From the NCBI GenBank assembly GCA_029762535.1, contig JARVGK010000029.1:1-37560 (forward strand): a stretch of 37,560 nt of DNA, read 5' to 3'. A model generated the notes under the pieces. The model was not told the DNA's origin. It ran no database searches and saw nothing but the letters and a program-made list of their open reading frames with translations. The DNA comes from Thermoplasmatota archaeon (GTDB lineage: Archaea; Thermoplasmatota; Penumbrarchaeia; Penumbrarchaeales; Penumbrarchaeaceae). Of the stretch, positions 489-19,714 are shown piece after piece. The translations under genes were made by a program, and so were the position numbers. The stretch's first letter is position 1; every line of letters begins with the position of its first letter.

Positions 489-1949
489 TCAGTCCCGTCG
501 GATCGACCGGATCAACCTCTCGTTCTTATCATATATGTTGGCGATAAGGGGCATGGATCCTGGCATGGAGTGGGTGGCACAGCCGAAGCAGGGATCATAG
601 GCGCGGAAGGCCATCTCGACCATGTTGAGGAGGCCGTCGTTGACCTCACCCTTCTTGATCAGGCCTTTGGCGGCGTCCCTCACGGACATGGTTATGGCTC
701 CTGCGTTGTTCGTTGTTGCGACGATCAGGTTCGCGGTCTTTATCAGGCCCTGCTCGTCCACGTCGTAGTGGTGGATCAGGGTTCCCCTGGCCGCCTCGAT
801 CACGCCGAAACCTTCTCCCGGCTCTCCCACGGGGTTCTTGATATGCGTCGATGTGATCTCCTCGTCCGTAGCGAGTTCCAGGGCCCTCTCCGCTGCGTAA
901 AGGAGCTCTATCAGTCTAGCCCAGTGGAAGGCAAGCGTCGAATGTACGGGCCTTCCGCCCAGGGTCGAGTAGAACCTCTCGAACTCCTTCTGGGCAAGGG
1001 GGGTGGCCATTCCTTCGGCGGCGTTCAGTCTGCCGAGAGGTCCCACCCGGTAGAATCCCGATCCTGCTCCGTCCGTGAAACCGCTATATCCCACCCTCTT
1101 GAGGTAGGGGAATTTCATGTAGCTCCATTTCTCCACCCTTTCGGCGATCTCCTTCTGATAATCTTCGACCGGGAACTTGATGAGTTCCCCCCCGGAGGGA
1201 TCCGTGACCCGGATAAGACCGTCGTAGAAGTTCAGCTTATCATTTTCATCCACAAGTCCCATGTTGTATGTCTTGAGCTGATACGGTCCCTTGGTGATCA
1301 GTTCGACATAATCCTTGTTCTTCAGGACGATGTCCTCGAAGAGCTGGAGGGAGAATTTGGCGAACTCCCGGGAGGATCCCGCCATCATCTCGATCTCTTT
1401 TCTCTCATCCTCGTTCAGTCCTTTGGAGACGCCTCCGGGCAGCCCGTTGACGGGATGTGTCGCTTTTCCCCCGAGGATCGCCGTGATCCTCTGTCCGTAA
1501 GCGCGGTGCTTGATCACTTCCTTTCCGATCTCCAGCCCCGCCTTCTCGATCACTCCCAGTATGTTCCTCTTTCCCGGGGGAGCATCCGGGCCCACGACGA
1601 AGTCAGGCCCTCCCAAAAAATAAAAATGGAGTATGTGGTCGTATATGATGTAGCCGCAGTACATCAGTTCCCTCAGCTTCTTCGCGGCGGAGGGGGGATC
1701 CACCTTGAAGGCCGAGTCGAGCGCCTTCGCCGCGGCAAAATGGTGCGCAACGGGGCACACACCACAGATCCGGGATGTGATCTGGGGCATATCTTCCGCT
1801 CTGCGCCCCTGGGCGAACTTCTCGAACCCTCTCAGCTCGGGGATCTGAAGATATGCGTTATCGACATCCCCCGCATCGTCGAGGAATATGTTGATCTTGC
1901 CGTGGCCTTCAAGCCTTGTTATGGGATCGATCACTATTGATGTAGTCAT
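489..1949 (-). CDS. mvhA: [NiFe]-hydrogenase group 3c large subunit (Hdr-linked, F420-non-reducing)
   Basis: True start MTTSIVIDPITRLEGHG at 1949 (ATGA overlap with mvhG stop). L1 motif RICGVCPVAH, L2 motif DPCFGCATH, plus a cleavable C-terminal extension. Confidence 0.95.
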   Translation of the reverse strand: MTTSIVIDPITRLEGHGKINIFLDDAGDVDNAYLQIPELRGFEKFAQGRRAEDMPQITSRICGVCPVAHHFAAAKALDSAFKVDPPSAAKKLRELMYCGYIIYDHILHFYFLGGPDFVVGPDAPPGKRNILGVIEKAGLEIGKEVIKHRAYGQRITAILGGKATHPVNGLPGGVSKGLNEDERKEIEMMAGSSREFAKFSLQLFEDIVLKNKDYVELITKGPYQLKTYNMGLVDENDKLNFYDGLIRVTDPSGGELIKFPVEDYQKEIAERVEKWSYMKFPYLKRVGYSGFTDGAGSGFYRVGPLGRLNAAEGMATPLAQKEFERFYSTLGGRPVHSTLAFHWARLIELLYAAERALELATDEEITSTHIKNPVGEPGEGFGVIEAARGTLIHHYDVDEQGLIKTANLIVATTNNAGAITMSVRDAAKGLIKKGEVNDGLLNMVEMAFRAYDPCFGCATHSMPGSMPLIANIYDKNERLIRSIRRD

Positions 1950-2926
1950 GGGATGACCCTCCTTTTGATAAGAGCAGAGGGAAGACCGTACTTGTAGAAT
2001 GTCCCTACAGGGTCCACCACCCCGTCGAGGAGCTTCTCCAGATCCTCGTCGGTCAGCGTTTCCTCGTCCTCGATCCCCAGGATCGAAGCGAGAGCCGAGA
2101 TCATCTTGCCTCCCTGATCGAGGGAGTTGGGCGTAGGCCCCCCGCAACCGGTGCAGGGCATGTAAGCATCCATGCACGGACCTCCGCACCCTCCGCGGGT
2201 GGCGGGCCCCATGCAGAGGATCCCCTGCTCGAGAAGACATTTGTCATCGACCTTCTCCACTTCGTAGATCCTCCTGACCTTTGCGATCCTCTTCTCGGAG
2301 CGCTCGAACCTGCACTCGTCGCATACGGATTTGGCCGGAGCTATCACCGACCCTTTAGGAGGGAGATCCCCTTTGATGATGGCACCGACAGCTTGCAGGA
2401 TCAATTTCGTAGGGGGTGGACATCCGGGTAGATAATAATCGACATCAACTGTCTGGTCCAGGGTCTTCACCGTGTCGAAGAACACCGGGATGGTCAATTC
2501 ACCCTCTTTCACCTCGCTTGAGGGCTCGGGTTCGACCCCCTCGGGGTTCTCAATGGAGGCGTTCTCGTGATAGACGGTCTCGAACACGCCTTTCTTATTG
2601 GACAGGTTCGCAAGCCCGGGGATCCCGCCGGTGGCCGCGCAGGATCCGAAGGCCACCAGCACCTTGGACTTCTTCCTCAACAGGTGCGCCAGATGCTCCT
2701 GCTCGGAATTTCTTATCGCGCCGTTGAAGAAGCAGACGTCGATATGGCCGTCCGGCATCTCCTCGACGTCCTTGTACTTGGTATCGATGGCCACAGGCCA
2801 GAACAATATGTCCGCCGCCCCCGCGACGGTCAGGATCGCCTCATCTATGTCAAGGACCGCGATCTCGCATCCGCCGCAGCTTGCCGCCCAGTAGAAGGCG
2901 AACTTCAATTTCTCGGTCACTGGCAT
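1946..2926 (-). CDS. mvhG: [NiFe]-hydrogenase group 3c small subunit
   Basis: YWAASCGGCE, FGSCAATGGIPGL, LPGCPP, CDEC, CLLEQGILCMGPATRGGC...PCTGCGGP. Confidence 0.95.
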   Translation of the reverse strand: MPVTEKLKFAFYWAASCGGCEIAVLDIDEAILTVAGAADILFWPVAIDTKYKDVEEMPDGHIDVCFFNGAIRNSEQEHLAHLLRKKSKVLVAFGSCAATGGIPGLANLSNKKGVFETVYHENASIENPEGVEPEPSSEVKEGELTIPVFFDTVKTLDQTVDVDYYLPGCPPPTKLILQAVGAIIKGDLPPKGSVIAPAKSVCDECRFERSEKRIAKVRRIYEVEKVDDKCLLEQGILCMGPATRGGCGGPCMDAYMPCTGCGGPTPNSLDQGGKMISALASILGIEDEETLTDEDLEKLLDGVVDPVGTFYKYGLPSALIKRRVIP

Positions 2927-3336
2927 TCCCCCTTGAGAGGATTGGGACCCAGTTCCTTGAGGGTCTGTACGAACTCGGTCACCACATCAGCGAACTTCTG
3001 TCCCTCGGAAGCGGATATGTAATCGAAGCGGACCCTGCGGGGATCCATGTTGAGGTCCTTCAAGAGCCTCTGGATCAATTTCATCTTTCGGTTTGTCTTG
3101 TAATTGCCCGACTGGTAGTGGCAGTCACCGGGATGGCACCCGGCCACGAGCACTCCGTCTATGCCCTCCTTGAGCGCATCCAGGACGAAGACTGGATCCA
3201 CCCTTCCGGAGCACATCACCCTGATCGATCTCACGTTGGGAGGATACTTCAAACGACTCGTCCCGGCGAGGTCCGCTCCGGCATATGAGCACCAGTTGCA
3301 CAGGAACGCTACCACAACGGGTTCAAAATCCGACAT
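2917..3336 (-). CDS. mvhD: MvhD/FlpD [2Fe-2S] adaptor subunit (copy next to hydrogenase)
   Basis: FLCNWCSYAGADLAG, RVMCSGRVDP, GCHPGDCHY, ISASEG. Start at 3336 (TGATG overlap with hdrA stop). Confidence 0.95.
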   Translation of the reverse strand: MSDFEPVVVAFLCNWCSYAGADLAGTSRLKYPPNVRSIRVMCSGRVDPVFVLDALKEGIDGVLVAGCHPGDCHYQSGNYKTNRKMKLIQRLLKDLNMDPRRVRFDYISASEGQKFADVVTEFVQTLKELGPNPLKGECQ

Positions 3337-6300
3337 CACTCCCCACCCCCCGGAGAGCAAGTGCTGAGGGCCTTGATCATGGCCAGGATCTGATCGTCCT
3401 TGAAGCCTCTTTGGCTTATTGCACCCGAGGGACATGCCGCCACGCATGTTCCGCACCCCTGGCAAAGGCCCTCGTTGACCCTGGCGTGCACGACCTCAAA
3501 GCCGTCCTTGACCTCGATTACCGAATCTATGGCTGTGTAGGGGCAAAGAGAGATGCAGGTCTTGCATCCGGAACAGAGGTCCTCATCGACGACGGCGATG
3601 TTGGGCTCCGCCTCCAGGGTGGAGTTCGCAAGGATCGTCGCCGCCCTCGCGGCCGCCGCCTGGGCCTGGTATATGGCCTCTCCCAAAAACTTCGGAAGGT
3701 GGCAGCTACCCGCAAGGAATACCCCTCTCGTGGAGAAGTCCACAGGACGCAGTTTCACGTGCGCCTCCAAAAAGAATCCGTCCTGGTTCAGCGGTACCTT
3801 GAGCATCTTCGCCAGATGGTCGTTCCCGGGATCGGGGACCATGCCCGATGATAATACGAGGTGGTCCGCCTGGATGGGGATATCCTCCCCCATGAGGGGG
3901 TCGTTCACTTTTACGAGGATGCGATCCCCCAACTTGACGCTGGGCATCCTCTCGGGAACATACTGGAGGAATACCACACCCTGCTCCCGCGCCTTCTTGT
4001 AAAATCTTTCCCAGAAACCGTATGTCATCAGGTCGCGGTAGAGTATGTATACCTCAGCGTGGGGGTTGATATCCTTGATCCTGATGGCGTTCTTCAAGGC
4101 CCCCATGCAGCAGGTCCTGGAGCAGTATTCCCTCCCCTCCTGCCTGGACTCGACGCACTGCAGGAATACGAACGTCTCCCCGTCGGAGATCCCTCCGGGG
4201 GGCGTCTTTGACAAATCTTCCTCCATCCGGGACTGGGTGACGATCCGGGGGTCCGATCCGTACCCGAATGTCGTGGGAACGTGCTCGTCCGCGCCGACAG
4301 TGATGATGATGGCCCCAACCTTCTCTTTCACGGGTCCATCGGGGGTCTCGATGGTGGCCTCGTAATTGCCGACATATCCGGACAGGTCCATGAGCGTGGA
4401 CCCGGTCATGACCTTCAGGTTGGGATTCATTTCGATCCTTCCGATCAGGTCCTTGAGCATATCTGCGGGTTCGATCCCCTCGACCGTGAATCGCAGGTCG
4501 TTTAGCCTTCCGCCGAGGCGGTCCTTCTTCTCAACAAGTAGCGTTTCGTAACCCTGGTCAGACAGGGACAGGGCGGCGACCATACCTGCGGCCCCGCCTC
4601 CTATCACGAGCGCTTTCTGGGTGACATCGACCTTCAATACCGGGATCGACTCGAGCATACGGGATTTCGCCACTGTCATGGAAATGAGGTCCCTCGCCTT
4701 ATCCGTGGCGAGACCCTTGTCCGAATGGACCCAGGAACAGTGCTCCCTGATATTGGTCATCTCAAGGAGATGGGGGTTCAATCCCGCCTCAGAGAGGCTC
4801 TTCTTGAACAGAGGTTCATGTGTTCTGGGAGTGCACGCGGCGACTATTACGCGGTTGAGCCTGTTCTCCTTAATGACGGAGGCGATCTTCTTCTGTGTGT
4901 CCTCGGAGCAGGTATACATGTTCTCGTCGGCATAGACGACGTTCTTTAGCCCACGGGCGTACTCCACGACCGAGGGGACGTCCACCTGATTGCCTATATT
5001 GATCCCGCAGTGGCAGACGAAGATCCCGATCCTCGGGTCCTCAGTGCTTACATCTCTCTCCGGGTACTCCTTCCTTGGGGTCGCAAGCGTCCCCCTTGCC
5101 TCCCTCAGGAGCGCTGCTGCGGAGGCGGCCGCGGCAGAGGCCTGCATGACCGCCTCCGGGATCGCCTGGGGCTCCATGAAGCTCCCGGCCATGAATATGC
5201 CTGGTCTCACCAGGGCGACAGGGTCCTTCTGATGGGACAAAGCGAAGCCGTACTCGTTGACATCCAGGCCCAGGTCCCTGAGGGCCTTCGTTCGGCCCTC
5301 GTTCATGCACAATCCGATGGAGAGTACGACCATGTCGTACGTCTCCTCGTGCAGGTCGCCGTTCTCGTCCTCGTATCTTATCAGAAGGTCGCCGTTCTCT
5401 TTCAACTCGTCGATCTCGGAGATCCTCGAGCGGACGTAACGGATCCCGTGTTCTACCTTCGCCCTCTCTATGTAGCGGTCGAAGTCCTTTCCGTAGGAGC
5501 GCACATCGATGTAGAATATGGTCGGTTCTATGGTCTTCTCGTGCTCCTTGGCTATGACCGCCTCCTTGGCGGTGTACATGCAGCACATGGCGGAGCAGTA
5601 CTCGTGGTCCACGGTCCGGTCCCTGGACCCGACGCACTGGACCCATGCTATCCTCTTCGGGCCTGCACCGTCCCCCGGCCTCTTGATATGCCCCTGGTAG
5701 GGTCCCGAGGCCGAGAGTATCCTCTCGAACTCGAGGCTGGTGACGACGTTTCGGTATCTCCCGTAGCCGAATTCCCTCTTCACCGAAGGGTCGAAAGGCT
5801 GGGCCCCCATGGCGAGAATGACCGCCCCGACATCGAGCTCGATATCCTCGTGTTTCTGGTCATGGTTAACGGCCCCGGGCTTGCAGGCTTTGACGCAGGC
5901 CATGCAGTTTATGCATCCCTTGTATCCCGGAGAGCCCTCCTTGTCGATCACGAAGGCGTTGGGGATCGCCTGGGGATACGCCTTGTAGGCGGCCTTCCTC
6001 ATGGAGAGCCCCCCCTCGAACTCGTTGGGGAGCTTTATGGGGCAGACCCTCTCGCACTCCCCGCAGGAGGTGCATTTCTCGATGTCCACGTATCTGGCCT
6101 TTTTATGAACGGATACCTTGAAATTGCCGGGTTCCCCACTCACCCCCGTCACCTCGGATAGGGACATGATCTCGATGTTGGGGTGCCTCGAGGCATCGAC
6201 CAGTTTCGGGGAGAGTATGCACATGGAGCAGTCATTGGTGGGGAAGGTCTTGTCAAGCTGGGCCATGATCCCGCCTATGGACGGGCCTTTCTCTATGAGG

Positions 6301-6401
6301 TACACCTTGAATCCCATGTCCGCAAGGTCCAGGGAGGACTGCACTCCCGCAATGCCCCCTCCGACGACAGCTACTGCACCTATGATCCCTTTATCGGACA
6401 T
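3336..6401 (-). CDS. hdrA: Double-module heterodisulfide reductase subunit A-like flavoprotein (1021 aa)
   Basis: Two FAD Rossmann motifs (VVGGGIAG; VIGGGAAG), LDKTFPTNDC, two CVxSR...YCSxxCCM..K motifs, an internal CHCG domain, and inserted and C-terminal 2x[4Fe-4S] ferredoxin motifs. Confidence 0.92.
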   Translation of the reverse strand: MSDKGIIGAVAVVGGGIAGVQSSLDLADMGFKVYLIEKGPSIGGIMAQLDKTFPTNDCSMCILSPKLVDASRHPNIEIMSLSEVTGVSGEPGNFKVSVHKKARYVDIEKCTSCGECERVCPIKLPNEFEGGLSMRKAAYKAYPQAIPNAFVIDKEGSPGYKGCINCMACVKACKPGAVNHDQKHEDIELDVGAVILAMGAQPFDPSVKREFGYGRYRNVVTSLEFERILSASGPYQGHIKRPGDGAGPKRIAWVQCVGSRDRTVDHEYCSAMCCMYTAKEAVIAKEHEKTIEPTIFYIDVRSYGKDFDRYIERAKVEHGIRYVRSRISEIDELKENGDLLIRYEDENGDLHEETYDMVVLSIGLCMNEGRTKALRDLGLDVNEYGFALSHQKDPVALVRPGIFMAGSFMEPQAIPEAVMQASAAAASAAALLREARGTLATPRKEYPERDVSTEDPRIGIFVCHCGINIGNQVDVPSVVEYARGLKNVVYADENMYTCSEDTQKKIASVIKENRLNRVIVAACTPRTHEPLFKKSLSEAGLNPHLLEMTNIREHCSWVHSDKGLATDKARDLISMTVAKSRMLESIPVLKVDVTQKALVIGGGAAGMVAALSLSDQGYETLLVEKKDRLGGRLNDLRFTVEGIEPADMLKDLIGRIEMNPNLKVMTGSTLMDLSGYVGNYEATIETPDGPVKEKVGAIIITVGADEHVPTTFGYGSDPRIVTQSRMEEDLSKTPPGGISDGETFVFLQCVESRQEGREYCSRTCCMGALKNAIRIKDINPHAEVYILYRDLMTYGFWERFYKKAREQGVVFLQYVPERMPSVKLGDRILVKVNDPLMGEDIPIQADHLVLSSGMVPDPGNDHLAKMLKVPLNQDGFFLEAHVKLRPVDFSTRGVFLAGSCHLPKFLGEAIYQAQAAAARAATILANSTLEAEPNIAVVDEDLCSGCKTCISLCPYTAIDSVIEVKDGFEVVHARVNEGLCQGCGTCVAACPSGAISQRGFKDDQILAMIKALSTCSPGGGE

Positions 6402-6405
6402 CTTT

Positions 6406-7092
6406 TCACTTCCTCGTGTATCCTTCCTTTATGGCGAGCTCGCGGATGGCGTACATCAACTGCGGTATCTTTACCCCTTGAGGGCACTCGTCGAGACATC
6501 TGAAATGGGTGGAGCAGATCTCCACGAACCTGTTGTCGAACACCCTGTCCTTCATGCCGAGAAGGGTCCCCCTTATGACCTTCCTGGGGGAATAGAGTGG
6601 GTCCAGGTCCCTCTCCGGGCAGCCAGCGGTGCAGGTCCCGCAGGCAAAGCAGCTGTATATGTCACGCCCGGCATCGGTCTCGGCGAGCCTGTACTTGAGA
6701 GAGGGGTCCATGCCCGATGCCCTCTTCGTGCCGGTCAGGTCCTCCTCTAGCTCCTCCTTGAGCCTCTCCTCCCGTATCTGGTTCATCAAGCCCTTGACGT
6801 TGACCTTCTGGGGGCATTTCTCGAGGCATGTGTAATGCGAGGAGCATATCCATACGAACTCAGATGAGAGGACCTCCTCCCTCAGACCAAGTAAGGCCTT
6901 GCGGATAATGGTGCGGGGGTTCCACTCCTCATGGACCTCCTGCTCCGGACATCTAGCCGTGCAGGAACCGCAGGCGAAGCATTTCAAAATGCCCTCCCCT
7001 CCCTCGATCCCGGCTATCTCGAACTTTAATTGTGGGTCAAGATCCCTGGAATCGATGCCGTTCATCTGAGGGTCCCCCTCGTCTCCGTTCAC
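6406..7092 (-). CDS. Tandem-duplicated HdrC-like Fe-S protein (start may be 7065)
   Basis: Two repeats, each with CFACGxCTAxCP and a second motif CSSHYTCLEKCP / CSTHFRCLDECP. Confidence 0.85.
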   Translation of the reverse strand: MNGDEGDPQMNGIDSRDLDPQLKFEIAGIEGGEGILKCFACGSCTARCPEQEVHEEWNPRTIIRKALLGLREEVLSSEFVWICSSHYTCLEKCPQKVNVKGLMNQIREERLKEELEEDLTGTKRASGMDPSLKYRLAETDAGRDIYSCFACGTCTAGCPERDLDPLYSPRKVIRGTLLGMKDRVFDNRFVEICSTHFRCLDECPQGVKIPQLMYAIRELAIKEGYTRK

Positions 7093-8199
7093 CTAATGGT
7101 CCCCCACGCTCTCGAATTCCTCTTCCTTGTAGAATATCATGGGCAGCTGGTCTTCGAGATCCCTTCCCGGGATGTACTCGAACTCCTTCTGGGCGTTCTG
7201 TGCGATGGGTATGATGATGTCCATCAACGGGATGTTCGCGGGGCAGGCCTGCTCGCACAATCCGCACTGGACGCATGACAGTATCATGTGGTTGAACCTG
7301 GTGATGTGGAACAACAGCGTGTCCGTAGGGGTCTTGAAGGACCCCTTGGACCCCGCCTTGGAGACGTACTTGTGCGCCTCCATGTTGAAGACCGCCGAAT
7401 CGAACAGGCACTCCTTGCAGTAGCAGATCGGGCATGCTTTCATGCAGTTATGGCAGTTTATGCAGGATTCGAAGAAGTCCGCGATCTTACCCGAGCCCTT
7501 GATATCGGAATGTTCCGCTATATGCTTCTCCCGGCTCCTGTCGGCGGCCTCCCTTACCTCAGAGACCGCCTTCTCCCTGGACCCATCGTCCTTGAAGGCA
7601 TCAAGCCCCATGCCCTCGAGAAGGGCCTGCCCGGCCTCGGTCTTCCCAGAGACCAGGATCCCTTTTTCCAGGTCCATGCCGAACGTCCCGATGACGATAT
7701 CCGCCCTGCCGGGAATGGGGTCAGCGCACGACCTGCAGGCGCTCCTTAGGAATTTCTCCCTCTCCTTGGGATCGAGTACCGCCGATGAGATGTCCTTATC
7801 CCCGGGGAAGTTCGAATACGTGTTCAGGTCGAAGGTCCCGGGGCAGTCCACCCCGATAAGTACCAGGTTCGCCGGGTCCGCCTGCTTGAGCTTGAATAGC
7901 TCGGTCAGCGCCCTCAGCTCACAGTTCCTCATGATGGCCGCGATGGGATCGTCGGAGCCTCGGGTCTTGGTGATCCTGGATAGGATCGTCGCCGTTGATA
8001 CAGGCATGAGAGGTGTGAATACATCCGAGCGCATCTTATCCGGATCGGAGACCAGCACCGGAAAGGCGGATCTCCCGTTGGGGGTGGTCTGAAGGGCCAG
8101 CACCGCTTTGACCTTGCCCGATGAGAGCAGTCCCTTCAGGAAGTCGTTCACGGCGCCGGAGGCGCCTCCTTTTCCAACAGGCAGTATGTGTTCGGTCAT
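7093..8199 (-). CDS. FdhB/FrhB-family (F420-dehydrogenase beta-like) flavo-Fe-S subunit
   Basis: Start at 8199 after GGAGGTGAGG. Motifs MRNCELRALTEL, IGVDCPGT, RSACRSC...ADIVIG, CINCHNCMKACPICYCKEC, CVQCGLCEQACP match the FdhB layout. Confidence 0.85.
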   Translation of the reverse strand: MTEHILPVGKGGASGAVNDFLKGLLSSGKVKAVLALQTTPNGRSAFPVLVSDPDKMRSDVFTPLMPVSTATILSRITKTRGSDDPIAAIMRNCELRALTELFKLKQADPANLVLIGVDCPGTFDLNTYSNFPGDKDISSAVLDPKEREKFLRSACRSCADPIPGRADIVIGTFGMDLEKGILVSGKTEAGQALLEGMGLDAFKDDGSREKAVSEVREAADRSREKHIAEHSDIKGSGKIADFFESCINCHNCMKACPICYCKECLFDSAVFNMEAHKYVSKAGSKGSFKTPTDTLLFHITRFNHMILSCVQCGLCEQACPANIPLMDIIIPIAQNAQKEFEYIPGRDLEDQLPMIFYKEEEFESVGDH

Positions 8200-8210
8200 T
8201 TCCTCACCTC

Positions 8211-8636
8211 CTACACGTCCCACCTCGCCCTCATGGGGTTGGGTCCAAGCTTCTTCGTCTCATCCACTATCTCCTTCACTGTATCGGCGAACCTCTGCCC
8301 CTCGGAGGCGGAGATCCATCTGACCCAGATCCTCTCCGGCTCCATGCCTAAGGTGGTGAGTATGTTCTTCAAAAGGACCATTCGCCTCCTGGCCTTGTAA
8401 TTGCCGTTGAGATAATGGCAGTCCCCCAGATGGCAGCCGCCGATCAGAACAGCGTCGGCCCCTTCGAGTATCGCCCTGTTCACATACATCGAATCGACCG
8501 AACCGGAGCACATTACCCTTATGACCCTGATGTTGGGGGGATATTGTATCCTTGATGTCCCTGCAAGGTCAGCTCCGGCATACGAACACCAGTTGCACAG
8601 GAACCCGACCACCCTTGGCTCGAAATCTTCCGTCAT
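8211..8636 (-). CDS. mvhD: MvhD/FlpD [2Fe-2S] adaptor subunit (copy next to FdhB-like gene)
   Basis: FLCNWCSYAGADLAG, RVMCSG, GCHLGDCHY, WISASEG. Confidence 0.95.
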   Translation of the reverse strand: MTEDFEPRVVGFLCNWCSYAGADLAGTSRIQYPPNIRVIRVMCSGSVDSMYVNRAILEGADAVLIGGCHLGDCHYLNGNYKARRRMVLLKNILTTLGMEPERIWVRWISASEGQRFADTVKEIVDETKKLGPNPMRARWDV

Positions 8637-8647
8637 TTGATATCACC

Positions 8648-11600
8648 TCAGTCCAGACATGCGTCTATCATCGAAATTATCTGTTTTTTAGTGAACGAGC
8701 TCTGCTGGGATGTGCCGCTCGGGCATATCGCGGCGCAGGCGCCGCACCCCTGGCAGAGTATCTCGTTGACGATGACGACCTTTTTATCCTCATCGAAGTC
8801 TATCGCGTCGTATGGACAGATCTGAAGGCATAGCTGGCATCCGGCGCAGCTTCTTGATATCACCTTGGCCACATTTCCTTTCGTCTCCAGATATTCCCTT
8901 GAAATTATGGTGGAGGCCCTCGATGCGCTCGCCTTCCCCTGGAGGACCGCCTCCTCTATGAAACGGGGCGAATGCGCGGTCCCGGCGAGGAAGATCCCAT
9001 CGCCGGAGAAGTCCACGGGACGAAGCTTCATATGGGCCTCCGAGAAGAACCCGTCGGCGTTGAGGGGCACCTTCAGCTTCTGTGCCAGCGTCGAATTCTC
9101 TTTGGGAACGATCCCTGTCGACAGGACCAGCCTGTCAGGGTGAAGGGTCATATCCCGGAGAAGGACATGGTCACGGGTCTGGACATTGAGGCTCCCATCC
9201 TCCAGGGACACGTTGGGTTCCCGTCCCTCCTCGAAATGAAGGAACAGCACCCCCAAAGCCCTTGCCCGGGCATAGAGGGAGTCCTCCCTGAAGCCGTATG
9301 TCCTTATGTCTCTGTAGAGAACGTACACGTTCACTGCGGGGTTGAGCTCCTTGAGATGGATCGCGTTCTTGAGGGCGTTCGAGCAGCATATCCTCGAGCA
9401 GTAGGGATGCTCATCGTTCCTTGAACCTACGCACTGTATCATCACGACCTCTTTGAGGTCTTCAAGGTAGGGGGCGCCCTTGTGGATGTCGCGCTCCAGG
9501 TCCCTCTGCCTCATTATCCTCTCATCGCTGCCGTACAGGTATTCCTTGGGCTCATAGGGATTGGCCCCGGTCGCCACCACGACGACGCCGTGCTGGACAA
9601 CGTCCACCGCATCGCCCTTTCTGATCCTCGAGGTAAAGTTCCCGACATATCCGGAGATGTCCTCGAGTTCGGATCCGAGCCTCAGGTCTATGTTCGGATG
9701 GTCCCGGACCGCCTCTTCGGTATCCCGAAGATAGAGCTGCGGATCCTCATCTGATGCCCCCAGGAAGATCTCCTTCATATGTCCTCCTAGCTCCATCTCC
9801 CTCTCCAGAAGATGTACCTTGAAGCCCTGGTCCGCAATGGAGAGGGCCGCGTTCATACCCGCGATCCCACCTCCTATGACCAGGGCCTCGTTGATGACGG
9901 GGATCCTGTGATGGGAGACCGATCGAAGTTCGTTGACCTTGGCGACGCCCATATTCACCGACTCGATGGCCTTACTCGTCGCCATCTCGGGATAGTTCCG
10001 GTGCACCCATGAGTTCTGGTCCCTGAGGTTGACCATCTCGAACAGGTGTGGGTTCAATCCCGCCTCCCTCAGCGTGTCCTGGAAGAGCGGCTCGTGTGTC
10101 CTTGGCGTGCACGATGCAACCACGATCCTGTTCAGGCCAAGCTCGATGATCCTCTCCTTCATCCTCTCGAGGGAATCAGCAGAACAGGTGAACGTCTCGT
10201 CGTCGGCGTATGCTACGAAGGGCAGACCTCTTGCGTGATCGACGACCTTTCGAACATCTATGACCCCGCTGATGTTGATCCCACAGTGGCAGATGAACAC
10301 CCCGGTCCTGGGGAACTCGTTGCCGACATCCCTCTCCCTGGGATACTCCTTCTCGGTCACCTGGGTGTTCCTGGCTCCGAAAATGTCCCCGGCCACCGCG
10401 GCGGCGGCCGCCGACGCCTGGGTGACGCTCTCGGGGATGTCCTTGGGCTCCGAGGCAGATCCGGAGGCGTATATCCCCGGGCGTCCGGTCTCAACGGGTA
10501 CGAAGGGATCCGTCTCCATGAAGCCGTATTCGTTTAGGTTGATCTCGAACGCCTTGGCGAGGTCCTCCATGGTGCTGCAGGGCTGGAGCCCGATGGAGAG
10601 GACGATCATATCATATTCATCGGTTCGGACATTCCCGTCCTCGTCTATGTACCGCACCTTCAGGTTCTTGGTCGCGCGGTCCTGTTCTATACGGGGGATC
10701 CGACTCCTCCTGAAGACCACTCCGTACTCGCTCTGGGCCCTCTCGTAGTATCTGTCGAAATCCTTGCCGAAGGACCTCATGTCCATGAAGTACACGTGCG
10801 TCTCGAGGCCGGGCACGTGCTCCTTGGCTATGACGGCCTCCTTGATAGCGTACATGCAGCATACTGAGGAGCAGTACTTGTGGTCGCAGCTCTCGTCCCT
10901 GGACCCGACGCACTGTAGCCATGCGATCCTCTTTGGCTCCTCGCCGTCCGAAAGCCTCTTGACATGGCCCTTGTACGGGCCCGAGGCCGAAAGCATCCTC
11001 TCGAACTCTATGGACGTAAGCACATTTGGGTACAACCCGTAGCCGAGGCTGCCTCCCTTCCGGGGCCTGTAATTGTCGAATCCAGGGGAGAGTATCACCG
11101 CTCCTACGTTGAGGGTCTGTTCCACCTCTTCCATCTCATGGTCCACCGCCCCCCTCTGGCAGTGCTCGACGCACTGCATGCAGTCGCAGCATCCGCTGCA
11201 ATTCAGGCAGCGCTTCGCCTCCTCCACGGCCTCCATGAGGGTGTATGTGGACTCGATCTCGGAGAAGGTGGAGGTCCTCTTCTCCATATCGATGGCCTGA
11301 GGGATCCTCCTCGGGGTCCTGGCCCGCATGGTGCTGTCGGGGATGGGAGCGCCCTTCTCCTCGGCCTTCTCCCGCCCCTCAATCAGGTCCTCTCCGTTGA
11401 GGAACCTATCGACGGAGATGGCAGCCTCGTGGCCAGCCCCGATGGCCTCGACCGCCGATGCTGGTCCGGTGACGGCATCCCCTGCCGAGAACACTTTCTC
11501 GAGCGATGTCCGAAGAGTTACGGGATCGCAATCGATCGCACCCTTGGAGAACTTCAATCCGCTCTTCTCCAGGCCGGCGGGGTCGATCTCCTGCCCGGTG

Positions 11601-13165
11601 GCGAATATGATGATGTCGCACGGGATGTCAAAAGCGGAACCCTCGATGGGGATGGGCTTCTTCCTCCCGCTCGGGTCCGGCTCGCCCAATTCCATCCTCT
11701 CACAGGTGAGGCATGTCTGGCATGCGTTCTCCACTACCTCGAGGGGCGAGGTGAGTATCTCTATGCCTATGCCCTCCTCTCTGGCCTGCTGCACCTCCTC
11801 GAGATGGGCGGGCATCTCCTCCTCGGTCCTGCGGTAGATGACCGAGACATCGGCGCCGAGCCTCTTCGCGGACCTTGCGCAGTCCATAGCGACGTTGCCG
11901 CCGCCGACCACGAGTACCCTCTTCGAGGCCAGTTCGTTCTCCTTGGCGAGGTCCGAATTCACCTTTTTCAGGAACTCTATGCCCTGCATGACGCAGTCCG
12001 GGCTGCAGCTGTTCACGGGTATGTCCTTGGCCTTCCATGAGCCGATGGCCGCGACGAAGGCCTCGAAGCCCTCGGAGGTGAGTCCTTCGAAGGTGACCTC
12101 CTTTCCGAGCCTTTTACCATACCTTATCTCGATATCGTTCTCCTTCAAAAGGAGGTCTATCTCCTTCTGCAGGTGATCGTTGGGGAGCCTGTAGCCGGGC
12201 ACCCCGAATCTCATCATTCCTCCCGCCTTATCCTGGGCTTCGAATATGGTGACGGAATAGCCCATTCTCGAGAGGTCGCTGGCAGCGGTCAATCCGGCGG
12301 GGCCTGAACCGATAACGGCCACCTTCCTTTTGCCCCCTCTCTCCTTCGGCTCCTGCCGGCCTTCCACCTTTGACAGGTTCTCGAGGCGATCCAGGGTGGC
12401 TTTTTCGACCTCATCCCAATGATCATATGCCCAATCCGCTATGAATCGCCTTATCCTGCATATCGATATGGGCTCCTCGATATCCTTCCTGTTACACTCG
12501 GTCTCGCAGGGATGATAGCATATCCTCCCCATTGAACCGGGAAGTGGAACGCTCTCTTTGATGAGCAGGTAGGCCTCGGCGAACCTCTCCTGGGAAGCCA
12601 GGGCCACGAAGGCATGGGCGTTGAGCCCCGCCGGGCAGGCGATCCTGCACGGCGATCTCTCCCCATCCTTGTCTATGGCGAAGATGTTCGGGATCGCCTG
12701 CGGGAAGGGCTGGAATATCGCATGCCTCTGGCCAAGCCCTTCGTCGAACTCGGAGGGCATCAGGACGGGGCAGTGCTCCACGCAGTCGCCGCAGCCGTTG
12801 CATTTCTCCATGTCCACGTATCTCGGGCGCCTCTTTATGGTCACCTGGAAGTTCCCCACATCTCCTTTTACCGAGCCGATGTCCGCGTTGGTGATGATCT
12901 CGATGTTGCGGTGCCTGCCGGTATAGACGAGCTTGGGGGCGAGAATGCACATGGAGCAGTCGTTCGTCGGGAACGTCTTGTCGAGCTTGGTCATGGTCCC
13001 GCCTATCGAGAGCCCGCTGTCCAAGAGATAGACCTTGAACCCGGCATCTGCCAGGTCCAGTGAGGACTGTATGCCCGATATGCCCCCTCCGACGACGAGG
13101 ACCGATCCCTGGACATCGCCGGAGGCGGTCGGAGCAGATGCGTCGATCCCTTTTTCCGACATCAT
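8648..13165 (-). CDS. hdrA: HdrL-type giant HdrA (~1505 aa): two HdrA modules with an inserted GltD/NfnL-like NAD(P)H oxidoreductase domain
   Basis: Start MMSEKG at 13165 (ATGA overlap). VVGGGISG, LDKTFPTNDC. Insert has PCRIACP...GRICYHPCETECNR, IGSGPAG, GGGNVAMD, YRR, EAKRCLNC. Then YCSSVCCMYAIK, CHCG, VIGGGIAG, YCSRICCSNALK and a C-terminal ferredoxin. Confidence 0.92.
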   Translation of the reverse strand: MMSEKGIDASAPTASGDVQGSVLVVGGGISGIQSSLDLADAGFKVYLLDSGLSIGGTMTKLDKTFPTNDCSMCILAPKLVYTGRHRNIEIITNADIGSVKGDVGNFQVTIKRRPRYVDMEKCNGCGDCVEHCPVLMPSEFDEGLGQRHAIFQPFPQAIPNIFAIDKDGERSPCRIACPAGLNAHAFVALASQERFAEAYLLIKESVPLPGSMGRICYHPCETECNRKDIEEPISICRIRRFIADWAYDHWDEVEKATLDRLENLSKVEGRQEPKERGGKRKVAVIGSGPAGLTAASDLSRMGYSVTIFEAQDKAGGMMRFGVPGYRLPNDHLQKEIDLLLKENDIEIRYGKRLGKEVTFEGLTSEGFEAFVAAIGSWKAKDIPVNSCSPDCVMQGIEFLKKVNSDLAKENELASKRVLVVGGGNVAMDCARSAKRLGADVSVIYRRTEEEMPAHLEEVQQAREEGIGIEILTSPLEVVENACQTCLTCERMELGEPDPSGRKKPIPIEGSAFDIPCDIIIFATGQEIDPAGLEKSGLKFSKGAIDCDPVTLRTSLEKVFSAGDAVTGPASAVEAIGAGHEAAISVDRFLNGEDLIEGREKAEEKGAPIPDSTMRARTPRRIPQAIDMEKRTSTFSEIESTYTLMEAVEEAKRCLNCSGCCDCMQCVEHCQRGAVDHEMEEVEQTLNVGAVILSPGFDNYRPRKGGSLGYGLYPNVLTSIEFERMLSASGPYKGHVKRLSDGEEPKRIAWLQCVGSRDESCDHKYCSSVCCMYAIKEAVIAKEHVPGLETHVYFMDMRSFGKDFDRYYERAQSEYGVVFRRSRIPRIEQDRATKNLKVRYIDEDGNVRTDEYDMIVLSIGLQPCSTMEDLAKAFEINLNEYGFMETDPFVPVETGRPGIYASGSASEPKDIPESVTQASAAAAAVAGDIFGARNTQVTEKEYPRERDVGNEFPRTGVFICHCGINISGVIDVRKVVDHARGLPFVAYADDETFTCSADSLERMKERIIELGLNRIVVASCTPRTHEPLFQDTLREAGLNPHLFEMVNLRDQNSWVHRNYPEMATSKAIESVNMGVAKVNELRSVSHHRIPVINEALVIGGGIAGMNAALSIADQGFKVHLLEREMELGGHMKEIFLGASDEDPQLYLRDTEEAVRDHPNIDLRLGSELEDISGYVGNFTSRIRKGDAVDVVQHGVVVVATGANPYEPKEYLYGSDERIMRQRDLERDIHKGAPYLEDLKEVVMIQCVGSRNDEHPYCSRICCSNALKNAIHLKELNPAVNVYVLYRDIRTYGFREDSLYARARALGVLFLHFEEGREPNVSLEDGSLNVQTRDHVLLRDMTLHPDRLVLSTGIVPKENSTLAQKLKVPLNADGFFSEAHMKLRPVDFSGDGIFLAGTAHSPRFIEEAVLQGKASASRASTIISREYLETKGNVAKVISRSCAGCQLCLQICPYDAIDFDEDKKVVIVNEILCQGCGACAAICPSGTSQQSSFTKKQIISMIDACLD

Positions 13166-15998: not shown

Positions 15999-16009
15999 CT
16001 CACCCCTCC

Positions 16010-16537
16010 TCAGACCTTCTCCATGGCCACGGTCATCACGGTCATCTGGAACTTCGCCGGGTCCGTCGGGACGGATATCGGGGGGAGGCACAATCCCTCC
16101 CTCGTCCTGGTCTCCCCGCCCCTTGTGGTGACCGTCTGGACGTCCTGGATCAGGCCCATTCCCATGGCCGAGGTCAGCATCGCCGTGTAGTCTCCCGGGA
16201 CCTCCTTGCCGGAGGCGACTGCAAGGTTCTTCAGCGCGAAGAGTATGTTCACAGGGGCCACTTTCTGAGGGCATCGCTCCTTGCACTTAAAGCAGCTGAG
16301 GCAGGTCCATATTATATCCGAATTGACCATCTCCTGGACGAGCCCTCTCTTCAAGAGGGCAACGATCCGGTGCGGCTCGAGCTCTAGGAGCTTGTGTGCC
16401 TCGCATCCCGCGGTGCATTTCGCGCATTGGTAGCAGTAGTAAGAGGCCTCTTCCCTCAGGCGCAGCAGACGCTCGTTGAGTTCCCTTCTCGCCTCTGTCT
16501 CCACCTCCGCCATGGAGGTCAAATCGGTGATGCCCAT
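16010..16537 (-). CDS. hdrC: Heterodisulfide reductase subunit C
   Basis: CYQCAKCTAGC and IWTCLSCFKCKERCP, directly upstream of hdrB. Confidence 0.92.
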   Translation of the reverse strand: MGITDLTSMAEVETEARRELNERLLRLREEASYYCYQCAKCTAGCEAHKLLELEPHRIVALLKRGLVQEMVNSDIIWTCLSCFKCKERCPQKVAPVNILFALKNLAVASGKEVPGDYTAMLTSAMGMGLIQDVQTVTTRGGETRTREGLCLPPISVPTDPAKFQMTVMTVAMEKV

Positions 16538-16582
16538 TCGGATCGCTCCAGGATGTTGCTGTGACGGTTAAAGCGGTTGTGG

Positions 16583-17536
16583 TCATGCCTTTTCGTTAAT
16601 GGCCTGGACCAGCTTCGGTATTACGGTGTACAGGTCCCCCACTATTCCGTAGTCGACCACCTTGAAGATGGGGGCGTTCTCGTCCTTGTTTATGGCGACT
16701 ATGATCCCGGAGTCCCTCATTCCGGCCACGTGCTGGATCTGACCGGATATGCCACATGCGACATAGAGCTTCGGCTTCACCTTGTGACCGGATAATCCGA
16801 TCCAATGGTCCTCGGAAAGCCATTTCAGGTCGGCCGCGATCGGCCTAGAGCACCCCAGGGTGTAACCTTTCAAGGATTTGGCCAGGTCCTCGATGAGCTT
16901 GAGGTCCTGGCTGCTCTTGAAGCCCCTGCCGCACGAGACGATTATCTGCGCGTCCTCGACGTTCGCGCCCTCTGAGACCATGCTCTCGACCTTGAGGATC
17001 TTCGATCCGTACTCTCTGGGGGCTATGTCCTTCGTGACGATCTCTCCTCCCCTCGAGTCGTCCGGTGGAAGGGGATCGTAGGTCTTTGCCTGCACGGTGA
17101 CGATCGCGGGTTTGGACGCGAACCTCTCCGTTGCGACGCCGTTCCCGGAATAGACGATCCTCTCGGTGACGATCGAGCCGTCCCTGACGTAGAGCTTCCT
17201 CGAATCAGTGGATAGGCCTGCGTCAAGAAGGGATGCGAGCCTGGGAGCGATCTCCTTTCCCGTCTTGGTCGAACCGATCATGATGAGCGGGGGATCCACC
17301 TCTTTGCATATGGAGTGGAGTATCTCGGATCCCTCCTCGGCCTTGATCTCGTCCATGTCCTGTCCCGCCAGATACACCACCGAGGCCCCGGCGGCCACAA
17401 GCTTCCTGGCCTTTTCCTGGCCGTCCCGGCCGAGGACCACCGCCGATGGCTTGGAACCCAGTTCCCTGGATATCTCAACCGCTTTAGCAAGCATCTCTAT
17501 TGCTATCTTTTCGTTATCGGAGAATACAAAAACCAT
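16583..17536 (-). CDS. etfA: Electron transfer flavoprotein alpha subunit
   Basis: IIVSCGRG, GCSRP, IGLSGHKVKPKLYVACGISGQIQHVAGM, AINKDENAPIF. Confidence 0.96.
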   Translation of the reverse strand: MVFVFSDNEKIAIEMLAKAVEISRELGSKPSAVVLGRDGQEKARKLVAAGASVVYLAGQDMDEIKAEEGSEILHSICKEVDPPLIMIGSTKTGKEIAPRLASLLDAGLSTDSRKLYVRDGSIVTERIVYSGNGVATERFASKPAIVTVQAKTYDPLPPDDSRGGEIVTKDIAPREYGSKILKVESMVSEGANVEDAQIIVSCGRGFKSSQDLKLIEDLAKSLKGYTLGCSRPIAADLKWLSEDHWIGLSGHKVKPKLYVACGISGQIQHVAGMRDSGIIVAINKDENAPIFKVVDYGIVGDLYTVIPKLVQAINEKA

Positions 17537-17540
17537 CTTA

Positions 17541-18305
17541 TCACCCCAGCGCTCCGTCCTTCGATAGGTTCTCGGCCAGGTCCTTCACTGCCTGGTCCAG
17601 GTCGTCCTTGAATATCAAGTTCTTCCTGTTCATCGCAAGGCCCTTGACGTCCTCCAGAACGACCTTGGGGGCCAGGTCAGGAACGTTCATGTCCGGGGCC
17701 TTGAGGACCTTGATGGGCTTGGCCGCGGACCCGAGTATCTGCATTAGGCTGGGCAGCCTCGGGACGTTGATCTCCTTGGTCACTGTGAGGAGGACGGGGT
17801 ATGTGGATTCGGACACCACCCTCTTATCGCCCATGTTCCTCTCCGCCGTTATCTTTTCGGCTTCGGCATCTATCTTGAAGGCGTAGCTAAGCTGGGGTAT
17901 GTCCATCGCCCCGGCGATCCTGGGCCCCATCTGGCCCGAGAACATGTCTATGGACGCCTCGCCGCAGAGCACGAGGTCCACCTGACCCATGTCCTTTATC
18001 GCCTTCGCGATCAGATTGGAGATGACGTGATAGTCGGCACCTTCCGGTGGAACGATCAGCACAGCGTCGTCGGCGCCCATGGCGAGGATCTCCTTGATCC
18101 TCTCACGTGCGTCCTCGGACCCGACGGTTATCACCGTCACCTTTCCCTTGAGCTTCTCCTTGATCCTTATGGCCTCCTCGGCCGCGTTCTTGTCTATGTC
18201 GCTGATCTTCTTGGGGATCCCCTCAAGGACCGGCTTCCCGGTGGAAGGGTTCACCTTGATCTCGCCCACATCGACGACCTGTTTCGCACAAACCACTATG
18301 TTCAA
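17541..18305 (-). CDS. etfB: Electron transfer flavoprotein beta subunit (TTG start)
   Basis: NIVVCAKQV, AAEEAIRIKE, LAMGADDA, DLVLCGEASID..SGQMGP, NVPRLPSL. Confidence 0.95.
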   Translation of the reverse strand: MNIVVCAKQVVDVGEIKVNPSTGKPVLEGIPKKISDIDKNAAEEAIRIKEKLKGKVTVITVGSEDARERIKEILAMGADDAVLIVPPEGADYHVISNLIAKAIKDMGQVDLVLCGEASIDMFSGQMGPRIAGAMDIPQLSYAFKIDAEAEKITAERNMGDKRVVSESTYPVLLTVTKEINVPRLPSLMQILGSAAKPIKVLKAPDMNVPDLAPKVVLEDVKGLAMNRKNLIFKDDLDQAVKDLAENLSKDGALG

Positions 18306-18321
18306 TCCATCAACTCCCTTT

Positions 18322-19461
18322 TCATCTCAGCAGGCTGCCCGAGATCACCATCTTCATGACCTCCGACGTGCCTTCGTAAATGCCCGTGATCCTGGCGTCG
18401 CGGTAAAGCCTCTCGACCGGGTACTCCCTCGTGTATCCGTACCCTCCGAATATCTGTATCGCCTTGTCCGTGGCGTCCACCGCCGTTTGTGCCGAGTAGA
18501 GCTTGGCCATCGCGGCCTCCTTGGAGAACCTCTTCCCCTGGTCCTTCATGTAGGCGGCGTTCATGACAAGGAAGCGCGCGGCCTCTATTCTGGTCGCCAT
18601 ATCAGCGATCATCCACTGTATCGCCTGGAAGCTCGATATCGGCTTTCCGAACTGATGCCTCTGCTTGGAATAGGCTACCGATTCCTCCAGGGCGGCCTGG
18701 GCAATGCCGACGGCCTGGGCGGCGATCCCGATCCTGCCCCCGTCCAGGGTGGACAGGGCGATCTTGAAGCCCTCCCCCTCCTTCCCCAGGAGGTTCTCCT
18801 TGGGGACCTCCATGTCCTCGAATATTAGCTCGGAGGTCATGGACGCGTTGATGCCTATCTTCTCGAATATGGAGCCGACCTTGTATCCCTTGAAATCGCT
18901 CTCTATGATGAAGGCGCTTATGCCTTTGGGGCCCTTTTCCCTGTCCGTGACGGCGAAAGCGATTATTATCCCCGCCTTCGGACCGCTCGTTATGAAAGTC
19001 TTTGTCCCGTTGAGGATGTAATGATCGCCCTTGAGCTCAGCCGTTGATTTCATGGCACCAAGGTCCGAACCCGCGTCAGGCTCGGTCCCGCCGAAAGCGC
19101 CTATCTTCTCGCCCCTGGCGAGGATCGGCAGGTATTTCGCCTTCTGCTCCTCGGTTCCGTATTGGATGATGGGCCAGGCGGTCAGGGAGTTGTGTACTGA
19201 TGTGACGACTCCGGTGGATGCGCATGCCCTGGAGATCTCCTCGATTATAGTGGCATACGTCACATGGTCAAGTCCCGGTCCCCCGTATTCCGCGGGTATG
19301 ATGGCGCCGAGGATCCCGAGCTCGGCCATCTTCTTCAATATCTCGTGGGGGTACTCCTCCTTTCGGTCCCTCTCGGCGGCACCGGGGGCGATCTCGCGTG
19401 CGGCGAACTCGCGGACCATGTTCCTGATCATGACCTGCTGTTCATTGAGCTCCAGAATCAT
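18322..19461 (-). CDS. Short/branched-chain acyl-CoA dehydrogenase, first gene of the Hdr operon
   Basis: Start MILELNEQQ at 19461. FGGTEPDAGSD, NGTKTFIT, LDGGRIGIAAQ, FGGYGY, IYEGTSE with catalytic Glu. Confidence 0.93.
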   Translation of the reverse strand: MILELNEQQVMIRNMVREFAAREIAPGAAERDRKEEYPHEILKKMAELGILGAIIPAEYGGPGLDHVTYATIIEEISRACASTGVVTSVHNSLTAWPIIQYGTEEQKAKYLPILARGEKIGAFGGTEPDAGSDLGAMKSTAELKGDHYILNGTKTFITSGPKAGIIIAFAVTDREKGPKGISAFIIESDFKGYKVGSIFEKIGINASMTSELIFEDMEVPKENLLGKEGEGFKIALSTLDGGRIGIAAQAVGIAQAALEESVAYSKQRHQFGKPISSFQAIQWMIADMATRIEAARFLVMNAAYMKDQGKRFSKEAAMAKLYSAQTAVDATDKAIQIFGGYGYTREYPVERLYRDARITGIYEGTSEVMKMVISGSLLR

Positions 19462-19484
19462 GGTCCGGGCCAAAGGGGTTACGA

Positions 19485-19500
19485 AAAATAAACCTTTCCG
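19485..19500 (-). promoter_or_regulatory. Archaeal BRE + TATA box for the ACAD-ETF-Hdr-Mvh operon (probably leaderless)
   Basis: Minus strand CGGAAAGG-TTTATTTT ending ~24 nt before the ATG at 19461, with no RBS upstream. Confidence 0.6.
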
Positions 19501-19714
19501 TGGGTCGTCTTTTAAAAATCGCGACATTGATGGAACGATGTTAATATGGGCTTTTATTTCGGTAACATTTCCCGACACAGGACGGTCGCGCTTATTATCC
19601 GGCCTATGTCATGGCCATGGGTCGTAAACGTTATAAACAACGTCCCCGCATAAAGATGATGCATATGGATGTCGAGGGGCCATGGTCCATCCTCGATCCA
19701 CAGGAGCTGTTCAT

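Follow-up and report, generated by a model that had tools for sequence, protein, structure and literature searches.

A tandem HdrC-type protein carrying His for Cys in one cluster motif per repeat belongs to a conserved eight-gene Hdr block of Thermoplasmatota

Introduction

Flavin-based electron bifurcation of the HdrA type is understood mainly through HdrBC and the heterodisulfide substrate, and the disposal of the high-potential electron in non-methanogens without CoM-S-S-CoB is a long-standing question. A first answer came from class II benzoyl-CoA reductase (BCRII). In a cryo-EM preprint on this enzyme BamE, a fused HdrA dimer, bifurcates at TrxR1 only, and the high-potential electron leaves through its E4 cluster for BamD. 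BamD is a fusion of HdrC and HdrB type that lacks a disulfide site and whose distal cluster is a modified [3Fe-4S]; it in turn reduces ETF (bioRxiv 10.64898/2026.04.10.717634). Mycobacterial EtfD, another module of HdrBC type, also cooperates with ETF, and its CCG clusters are altered (PMC13083937). ANME genomes, too, encode fused HdrAs (PMC9012536), and in the Fdh-Hdr and Elp-Hdr complexes FdhB/ElpB, together with MvhD/ElpC, passes electrons from F420H2 to HdrA (PMC12350162).

The motif CXXHXXC(X)nCP, in which His replaces the second Cys, has been described in P450-linked ferredoxins. All ferredoxins of this type examined hold a [3Fe-4S] cluster, anaerobic purification included; their potentials are raised (-31 mV for M. 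tuberculosis Fdx and +230 mV for M. marinum Fdx5), and in the crystal structures the His points away from the cluster and is not bonded to it (PMC6237146; bioRxiv 10.1101/2022.11.02.514812).

The window analysed here, the whole stretch of 37,560 nucleotides from a Thermoplasmatota archaeon, contains a gene, hdrC'C', whose product has two HdrC-type domains with such a His motif in each. We describe the protein, its conservation and its surroundings, and weigh what its clusters and its docking partner may be.

Results

The minus-strand open reading frame at 6406-7092 was confirmed in the window sequence. Homologues of HdrC'C' are 217-225 aa long and cover 96% of this long frame, and a Shine-Dalgarno-like run, GAGGGGGA, lies 5' of the ATG at 7065. 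Because of the homologue lengths and this run, the ATG at 7065 was taken as the most likely start, and the GTG at 7092, upstream of it, is probably not the true one (Table 1). The two repeats of the protein, each of about 105 aa, are identical at 45 of 96 residues (47%). Each contains one CxxCxxCxxxCP and one CxxHxxCxxxCP motif, with the His occupying the second ligand position of the second motif in both repeats. The ordinary HdrC of the same operon has CLSCFKCKERCP at the corresponding motif.

Table 1. Coordinates of hdrC'C', its cluster motifs and the neighbouring genes in the window
Feature	Position	Strand	Remarks
Second mvhD, mvhG, mvhA ([NiFe] hydrogenase)	489..3336	minus	downstream module, in some lineages only
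HdrA'A', fused double HdrA (1021 aa)	3336..6401	minus	always the next gene downstream of hdrC'C'
HdrC'C' coding sequence	6406..7065	minus	219 aa plus stop
Repeat 2, motif 2, CSTHFRCLDECP	6481..6516	minus	His187 codon CAT at 6505-6507
Repeat 2, motif 1, CFACGTCTAGCP	6616..6651	minus	all-Cys
Repeat 1, motif 2, CSSHYTCLEKCP	6811..6846	minus	His77 codon CAT at 6835-6837
Repeat 1, motif 1, CFACGSCTARCP	6946..6981	minus	all-Cys; aligned to HdrC
FrhB', FdhB/ElpB-like flavo-FeS subunit (376 aa)	7093..8223	minus	always the next gene upstream of hdrC'C'
MvhD adaptor, first copy	8211..8636	minus	
HdrL-type double HdrA with inserted NfnB/GltD-like module (~1505 aa)	8648..13165	minus	
Canonical hdrA	13162-15120	minus	
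Canonical hdrB	~15120-15998	minus	sole CCG-domain gene in the genome
Canonical hdrC	16010-16537	minus	
etfA, etfB, acyl-CoA dehydrogenase	16583..19578	minus	the genome's only ETF; linkage to the block confined to the window's family

In a sequence search against solved structures, each repeat matched residues ~14-108 of HdrC chains 183-185 aa in length (8rvv_C, 8rvu_c, 5odc_C, 9sfi_E and 7bkb_C), with phmmer E values of 1e-17 against 8rvv_C and 2e-15 against 5odc_C. The motifs aligned without gaps, and each His falls on the second Cys, a ligand, of CTTCYSCQERCP in solved HdrC. The reading frame, the motifs and this alignment confirm what had been proposed from the letters of the window alone, namely two HdrC-like repeats with Cys changed to His in the same motif of both. 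No match in HdrC'C' was found to the C-terminal extension of HdrC (residues ~110-184), which wraps HdrB, and all alignments end at residues 106-108. Each repeat is the N-terminal ferredoxin-like domain of HdrC only, without the HdrB-clamping tail.

The AF2 model of HdrC'C', built with 48 homologues, had a pLDDT of 86.6 and a pTM of 0.81, and superposed on 5odc_C with a Z of 12.6 and an rmsd of 1.9 A over 100 residues, all inside residues 1-110 of that chain (VIA-align). Foldseek found no precedent for a tandem HdrC in the PDB; only single-domain HdrC chains were matched, at E ~3e-3. The protein scored 130 bits against TIGR03290 (HdrC), summed over two stretches and below the 160-bit cut-off, and its scores against the SdhB/FrdB families (42 bits, cut-off 228; 39.7 bits, cut-off 88) were both under threshold. 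Its Pfam domains are of Fer4 type only, with no Fer2 and no CCG domain. Compared with HdrC (PDB 5ODC chain C, 8RVU chain c and 7BKB chain C; TIGR03290), HdrC'C' has the common fold and motif spacing at 33-50% identity and is likewise encoded beside an HdrA. Unlike HdrC, it has two domains per chain, no HdrB-clamping extension, His for one Cys ligand per repeat and no HdrB partner of its own.

The genes around hdrC'C' keep the order HdrC-HdrB-HdrA (652 aa)-HdrL (~1505 aa)-MvhD-FrhB' (~370 aa)-HdrC'C'-HdrA'A' (~1015 aa) wherever a locus extends far enough for the order to be seen, among 24 genome loci and additional metagenome contigs. The segment MvhD-FrhB'-HdrC'C'-HdrA'A' is present in all sufficiently long loci, including distant ones at 46-63% identity. 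The label 'orphan' in the earlier note is therefore misleading, since hdrC'C' has a constant place in a conserved block of eight genes. The adjacency to a two-module HdrA that the same note had drawn attention to proved constant, with hdrC'C' always directly upstream of hdrA'A'. As to the expected co-occurrence with a double hdrA and with etf, the former was seen in all sufficiently long loci, but etf adjoins the block only in the window's family. A second hdrB or other CCG gene was not found in the whole 93%-complete genome, whose sole CCG gene, the operon hdrB, adjoins the canonical hdrC; the earlier statement that there is no second hdrB thus holds genome-wide.

The gap between hdrC'C' and hdrA'A' is 4 nt and that between frhB' and hdrC'C' is 27 nt. 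In HdrA'A', module 1 has an inserted ferredoxin and module 2 has N-terminal and C-terminal domains. Both modules contain an HA4-type four-Cys motif (C256/C269/C273/C274 and C749/C760/C764/C765), invariant among 50 sequences, and each motif is followed by a Lys: K279 in every sequence, and K770 in at least 90% of them. FrhB' is nearest to FdhB/ElpB of the solved Fdh-Hdr and Elp-Hdr complexes.

Both His residues were present in all 121 close homologues (61-92% identity); two of these fail the motif pattern because they miss another Cys, and both keep the His. In a 48-sequence alignment the two His columns and all 14 Cys were invariant. Among about 45 nucleotide loci, CAT and CAC were both used at both His sites (62 CAT, 34 CAC), switching between close relatives. 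A change from Cys to His takes two base changes. The synonymous turnover, together with this two-base distance, therefore shows that the His is held by selection, and in about 140 of 150 related HdrC-like representatives, some up to 55% identical, the position is Cys. These sequence comparisons indicate that both His are under purifying selection in a clade-specific manner, in agreement with the suggestion that the His had been kept by selection.

In an exhaustive search of 1.84 billion representatives, the His type was confined to the tandem cluster with its fragments, apart from two divergent entries. In a maximum-likelihood tree of 84 domains, all 20 His-type domains lay on one side of one branch (support 91/90; 93% of bootstrap trees), and repeat 1 and repeat 2 domains were each monophyletic. 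The tree supports, as the simplest history, a single Cys-to-His change followed by internal duplication, with the His retained in both copies. All-Cys tandem HdrC-like proteins of ~300 aa (e.g. P0177, P0188 and P0201) likewise have two HdrC-type dicluster domains per chain, but form a separate clade (100/98) with four all-Cys motifs and a longer linker.

Both divergent His-type entries are tandems. P0151 ends at its contig end. P0158 was considered as a single-domain His form and rejected: it corresponds to repeat 2, and on two independent contigs (L004 and L005) the whole tandem is encoded, repeat 1 being broken by a 1-nt frameshift within the His motif. No genuine single-domain His-type HdrC was found among the exhaustive representatives. 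No fused His-type tandem was found among the exhaustive 50%-identity representatives either, where the four proteins at E<=1e-30 were all stand-alone or fragments. An apparent fusion, P0125 (454 aa), encoded on a 2.3-kb contig, was rejected: its similarity to the tandem stops suddenly within repeat 2, where unrelated sequence takes over, and it is therefore probably chimeric. Fusion partners of the closest Cys-type HdrC domains are response regulators, kinases, GCV_H, DUF3786, MvhD or CCG domains; taken as a clue to a partner, these fusions are uninformative for the His clade.

It might be argued that HdrC'C' is a decaying duplicate of hdrC without a function of its own, given that one Cys per repeat and the HdrB-binding tail are gone and that interrupted copies occur (the frameshift in L004/L005, and in-frame stops in G190). 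The conservation data effectively refute this: more than 100 clusters at 61-92% identity retain the 14 remaining Cys and both His, codon turnover at the His sites is synonymous, the synteny is fixed and the predicted fold is confident. Judged by these sequence data, the chance that the gene is merely decaying appears close to nil.

In a 401-genome sample of the phylum, the full tandem was found in 16 of the 23 genomes of the window's family and in about 15 of the 53 genomes of a second Thermoplasmatota family; elsewhere in the sample only single-domain Cys-type relatives turned up. The source names of homologues point to Thermoplasmatota, and divergent copies occur on bacterial metagenome-assembled contigs labelled WOR-3 and Sumerlaeota. 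In the window's family the block is flanked by ACAD-EtfBA upstream and by MvhD-MvhG(-MvhA) downstream, and the second family mostly has neither flank. In another lineage (loci L029 and L030), the genes directly after HdrA'A' encode, in place of these flanks, an SdhB-like protein with Fer2+Fer4 and a flavoprotein resembling TfrA. An etf adjacent to the block was absent from second-family and Sumerlaeota-type loci; four of five second-family genomes have an unlinked ETF, and in one that is 91% complete no ETF was found. These variable flanks (hydrogenase, ETF/ACAD and fumarate-reductase-like) are in keeping with a core to which various partners can be attached.

Discussion

HdrC'C' is very probably a functional FeS wire of this Hdr block. 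Its overall role may be read as that of an HdrB-free 2x([4Fe-4S]+[3Fe-4S]) wire that lies on the high-potential branch of HdrA'A' and holds the gene position of BamD, a reading to which we assign a probability of roughly 0.5. The parts of this reading differ in strength and are discussed below.

Each chain would hold four clusters, two of them all-Cys [4Fe-4S] clusters and two at the CxxHxxCxxxCP sites. The latter are, on the analogy with the P450 ferredoxins, slightly better explained as [3Fe-4S] clusters than otherwise; they would be cuboidal and of raised potential, with the His tuning and not ligating them. [3Fe-4S] is favoured over His ligation because the CXXHXXC(X)nCP precedents are [3Fe-4S] proteins in which the His is no ligand. 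The shifted potential proposed in the earlier note thus stands as a reasonable inference from these precedents, and of its two cluster types the [3Fe-4S] form is preferred and the His-ligated one is not. The His-for-second-Cys motif is common to HdrC'C', M. tuberculosis Fdx (Rv0763c) and FdxE (Rv1786), M. marinum Fdx1/5/8/10 and R. palustris HaPuxC (PDB 4ID8). Those ferredoxins are 60-70 aa long, carry a single cluster and serve P450s in aerobic bacteria, whereas HdrC'C' has the motif twice, in a dicluster HdrC fold of 219 aa and in an anaerobic Hdr operon; the small size, aerobic hosts and other fold context of the precedents count against the analogy.

With [3Fe-4S] clusters at these sites, each repeat would resemble the C-terminal domain of SdhB. 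SdhB pairs one [4Fe-4S] cluster with one [3Fe-4S] cluster, the latter lying at motif 2, where the same Cys is missing, and distal to the flavoprotein. This SdhB/FrdB domain (e.g. 1KF6 chain B) is a homologous helical dicluster domain with weak matches to HdrC'C'. Unlike HdrC'C', SdhB has a hydrophobic residue at the His site and an N-terminal [2Fe-2S] domain, is not a tandem and sends electrons to a quinone site.

The strict invariance of the His could instead mean that it ligates the cluster. In that case each His would coordinate a [4Fe-4S] cluster together with three Cys, and the potential of these clusters would be moderately raised and pH-dependent, with possible proton coupling. The His stands exactly at the ligand position and is invariant in both repeats over deep divergence, in contrast to [3Fe-4S] ferredoxin paralogues, where the variable residue drifts between His, Asn, Tyr and Ser, and His-ligated [4Fe-4S] clusters exist in hydrogenases (PMC6237146). 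The hosts, moreover, are strict anaerobes, for which oxygen-driven loss of the fourth iron is no issue. Nevertheless, every characterised CXXHXXC(X)nCP protein has been isolated with [3Fe-4S], anaerobically too, and its His is unbonded in the crystal, so that ligation by His is a less likely alternative, although one to be taken seriously.

As for the partner, HdrC'C' cannot act as an ordinary HdrC, because the HdrB clamp is lost and the genome has no spare HdrB, and it probably carries electrons without the usual disulfide-reducing partner. In the proposed mechanism, HdrC'C' would conduct electrons within an uncharacterised complex for flavin-based bifurcation of the HdrA type. The protein may have arisen from an HdrC that lost its HdrB-clamping tail, changed the second Cys of its second cluster motif to His and then duplicated its ferredoxin-like domain. 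It would take the high-potential electron from an HA4-type cluster of HdrA'A' and pass it on, without disulfide chemistry, to an acceptor module that depends on the lineage. Docking on HdrA'A' is plausible because the two are always adjacent and HdrA'A' keeps two four-Cys HA4-type motifs; by analogy with known Hdr complexes we consider it rather likely. A complex prediction with two fragments of HdrA'A' (residues 5-438 and 594-930) and HdrC'C' gave a score of 0.28 (mark 0.32), which speaks neither for nor against this docking.

The reading of HdrC'C' as an HdrB-free exit of HdrA'A' was drawn from its fixed place before a fused HdrA, like that of bamD before bamE. The bam cluster has the gene order bamD-bamE-bamF, which is paralleled by HdrC'C'-HdrA'A'-MvhD2, and by gene position HdrC'C' would stand in for BamD or HdrBC beside the fused HdrA dimer. 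BamD, too, lies directly before a fused HdrA dimer of ~1020 aa and starts with an HdrC-like dicluster domain, and HdrC'C' may be likened to it as a non-disulfide, high-potential exit with its distal cluster altered to the [3Fe-4S] type. The second half differs, consisting of HdrB-like CCG domains with non-cubane clusters in BamD and of another HdrC-type domain in HdrC'C', and HdrC'C', unlike BamD, has lost its Cys in cubane motifs. In module 2, HdrA'A' keeps a Lys (K770) where BamE has Gln768.

Other docking sites and acceptors have to be weighed against docking on HdrA'A'. HdrC'C' might bind FrhB' in the place of FdhA or of a truncated ElpA and serve as a side wire of the donor arm, not as the high-potential exit of HdrA'A'. 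Consistent with this, hdrC'C' closely follows frhB' in every locus, FrhB' resembles FdhB/ElpB more than other solved subunits and has a C-terminal dicluster domain, which in FdhB/ElpB faces FdhA/ElpA, and no FdhA/ElpA-like gene is present, while ElpB has a cluster facing ElpA (PMC12350162). The packing against hdrA'A' is, however, equally tight, and no FrhB'-HdrC' fusion occurs among the exhaustive representatives. To our knowledge, moreover, every solved Hdr complex has its HdrC domain in contact with HdrA, and a site on FrhB' is considered unlikely.

The earlier note suggested ETF, as an example of a non-disulfide acceptor, for the electrons that the tandem would conduct out of the double HdrA; bifurcation would then be coupled to acyl-CoA/enoyl-CoA chemistry. 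In the window's family ACAD-EtfBA lies in the same operon and supplies the only ETF of the genome, ETF is the high-potential acceptor of the fused-HdrA system BCRII (bioRxiv 10.64898/2026.04.10.717634), and in another lineage a fumarate-reductase-like pair, also a C=C reductase, directly follows HdrA'A'. Against it, the link is lineage-specific, the second-family block having no adjacent etf and one genome no detected ETF at all. In both solved precedents (BamD and EtfD), furthermore, ETF docks on CCG-type modules, and in the window it is the CCG protein HdrB, with canonical HdrC, that adjoins etfA and provides the precedent-backed ETF site. ETF as the acceptor is thereby weakened to a quite improbable reading.

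A further, improbable reading is that each repeat docks on an HA4-type cluster of its own, so that the four-cluster chain makes a direct FeS bridge from one HdrA-type flavin to another and connects two sites of bifurcation. Such a bridge could span the two TrxR modules of HdrA'A', or one HdrA'A' module and one HdrL module, with the high-potential [3Fe-4S] clusters as way-stations; in contrast to BamE, HdrA'A' has retained the four-Cys motif together with the Lys on the flavin side in each of its modules. From the compact AF2 model it is not apparent how the repeats would reach two HA4 sites that lie far apart, a point that weighs against the main reading as well, and we know of no inter-flavin HdrC bridge that has been described.

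The HdrC fold and the His motif are each known, and the combination of a tandem without tails, a 7Fe-type motif per repeat and a fixed partnership with a fused HdrA is undescribed; a literature search found no description of a tandem HdrC or of His in HdrC. If the reading of HdrC'C' as an HdrB-free exit of HdrA'A' is true, the protein would be a second solution to the disposal of the high-potential electron, different from that of BCRII in being an exit module without any CCG domains, and in its distal-type clusters there is a substitution that is known from other proteins to raise the potential by hundreds of millivolts. HdrC'C' is a small, soluble protein, abundant in metagenomes of Thermoplasmatota that are widespread in sediments, and its function would help to assign a role to a conserved eight-gene, five-flavin Hdr block.

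Variation in the tandem hdrC'C' gene

In many genomes of the second Thermoplasmatota family (e.g. L024-L028 and L038-L046), the motif of repeat 2 of HdrC'C', the double HdrC with His in its second motif, reads CS(S/M)HHRC. An extra His thus directly follows the conserved one, at a site occupied by Phe in the window and by Tyr in others.

Interrupted copies of the tandem gene were seen in two settings. In two independent metagenome contigs, one extra nucleotide in a C-run (AACCCGC) within the His motif of repeat 1 breaks the gene, and gene callers therefore give repeat 2 alone (P0158). The extra base could stem from a sequencing artefact, or else the gene could be a pseudogene or contain a recoding site. 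The tandem gene of G190, a genome of the window's own family, contains in-frame TGA and TAG stops and may be a pseudogene or reflect an assembly error.

The ~300-aa proteins P0177, P0188, P0201 and P0226 form a family of their own: these HdrC-like tandems are all-Cys, contain two dicluster domains and score as QmoC/HdrC-like.

Locations of features in the window and in related loci
Feature	Location	Length	Description
HdrA'A' (fused double HdrA)	window 3336-6401 (-)		K279, K770
HdrB and ETF genes	window 15120-18305		neighbours
Gene pair directly after HdrA'A'	L030:10146-12647; L029:4675-7238		divergent lineage
 One gene of the pair		237 aa	SdhB-like, Fer2 + all-Cys dicluster
 Other gene of the pair		559 aa	TfrA/fumarate-reductase-like flavoprotein, ~95-aa N-terminal extension
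hdrC'C'-hdrA'A' spacer	L030:6313-7000	~690 bp	several similar repeat units
Broken tandem gene	L004:1-700; L005:400-1150		1-nt insertion
Tandem gene with stops	G190:C15:61015-61654		TGA, TAG
Adenylosuccinate synthetase gene	L002:14198-16675		contains an intein, LAGLIDADG endonuclease domain

Gene content of a divergent lineage

In the divergent lineage represented by L029 and L030, one contig of which is labelled Sumerlaeota, the SdhB-like and TfrA-like proteins encoded after HdrA'A' may together constitute a C=C reductase linked to Hdr. The intergenic spacer of L030 is unusual, as the rest of the operon is tightly packed.

Fused HdrA, HdrB and ETF

Both modules of HdrA'A' keep the flavin-side Lys and the four-Cys HA4-type motif, whereas the second, non-bifurcating module of BamE, the fused HdrA dimer of class II benzoyl-CoA reductase, has Gln in place of the module 2 Lys. 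Because of this difference, module 2 of HdrA'A' may hold a redox-active flavin.

HdrB is the sole CCG-domain protein of the genome, and its neighbour is the sole ETF. By comparison with the BamD-ETF pair of benzoyl-CoA reductase and the mycobacterial EtfD-ETF pair, HdrCB may serve as the docking module for ETF.
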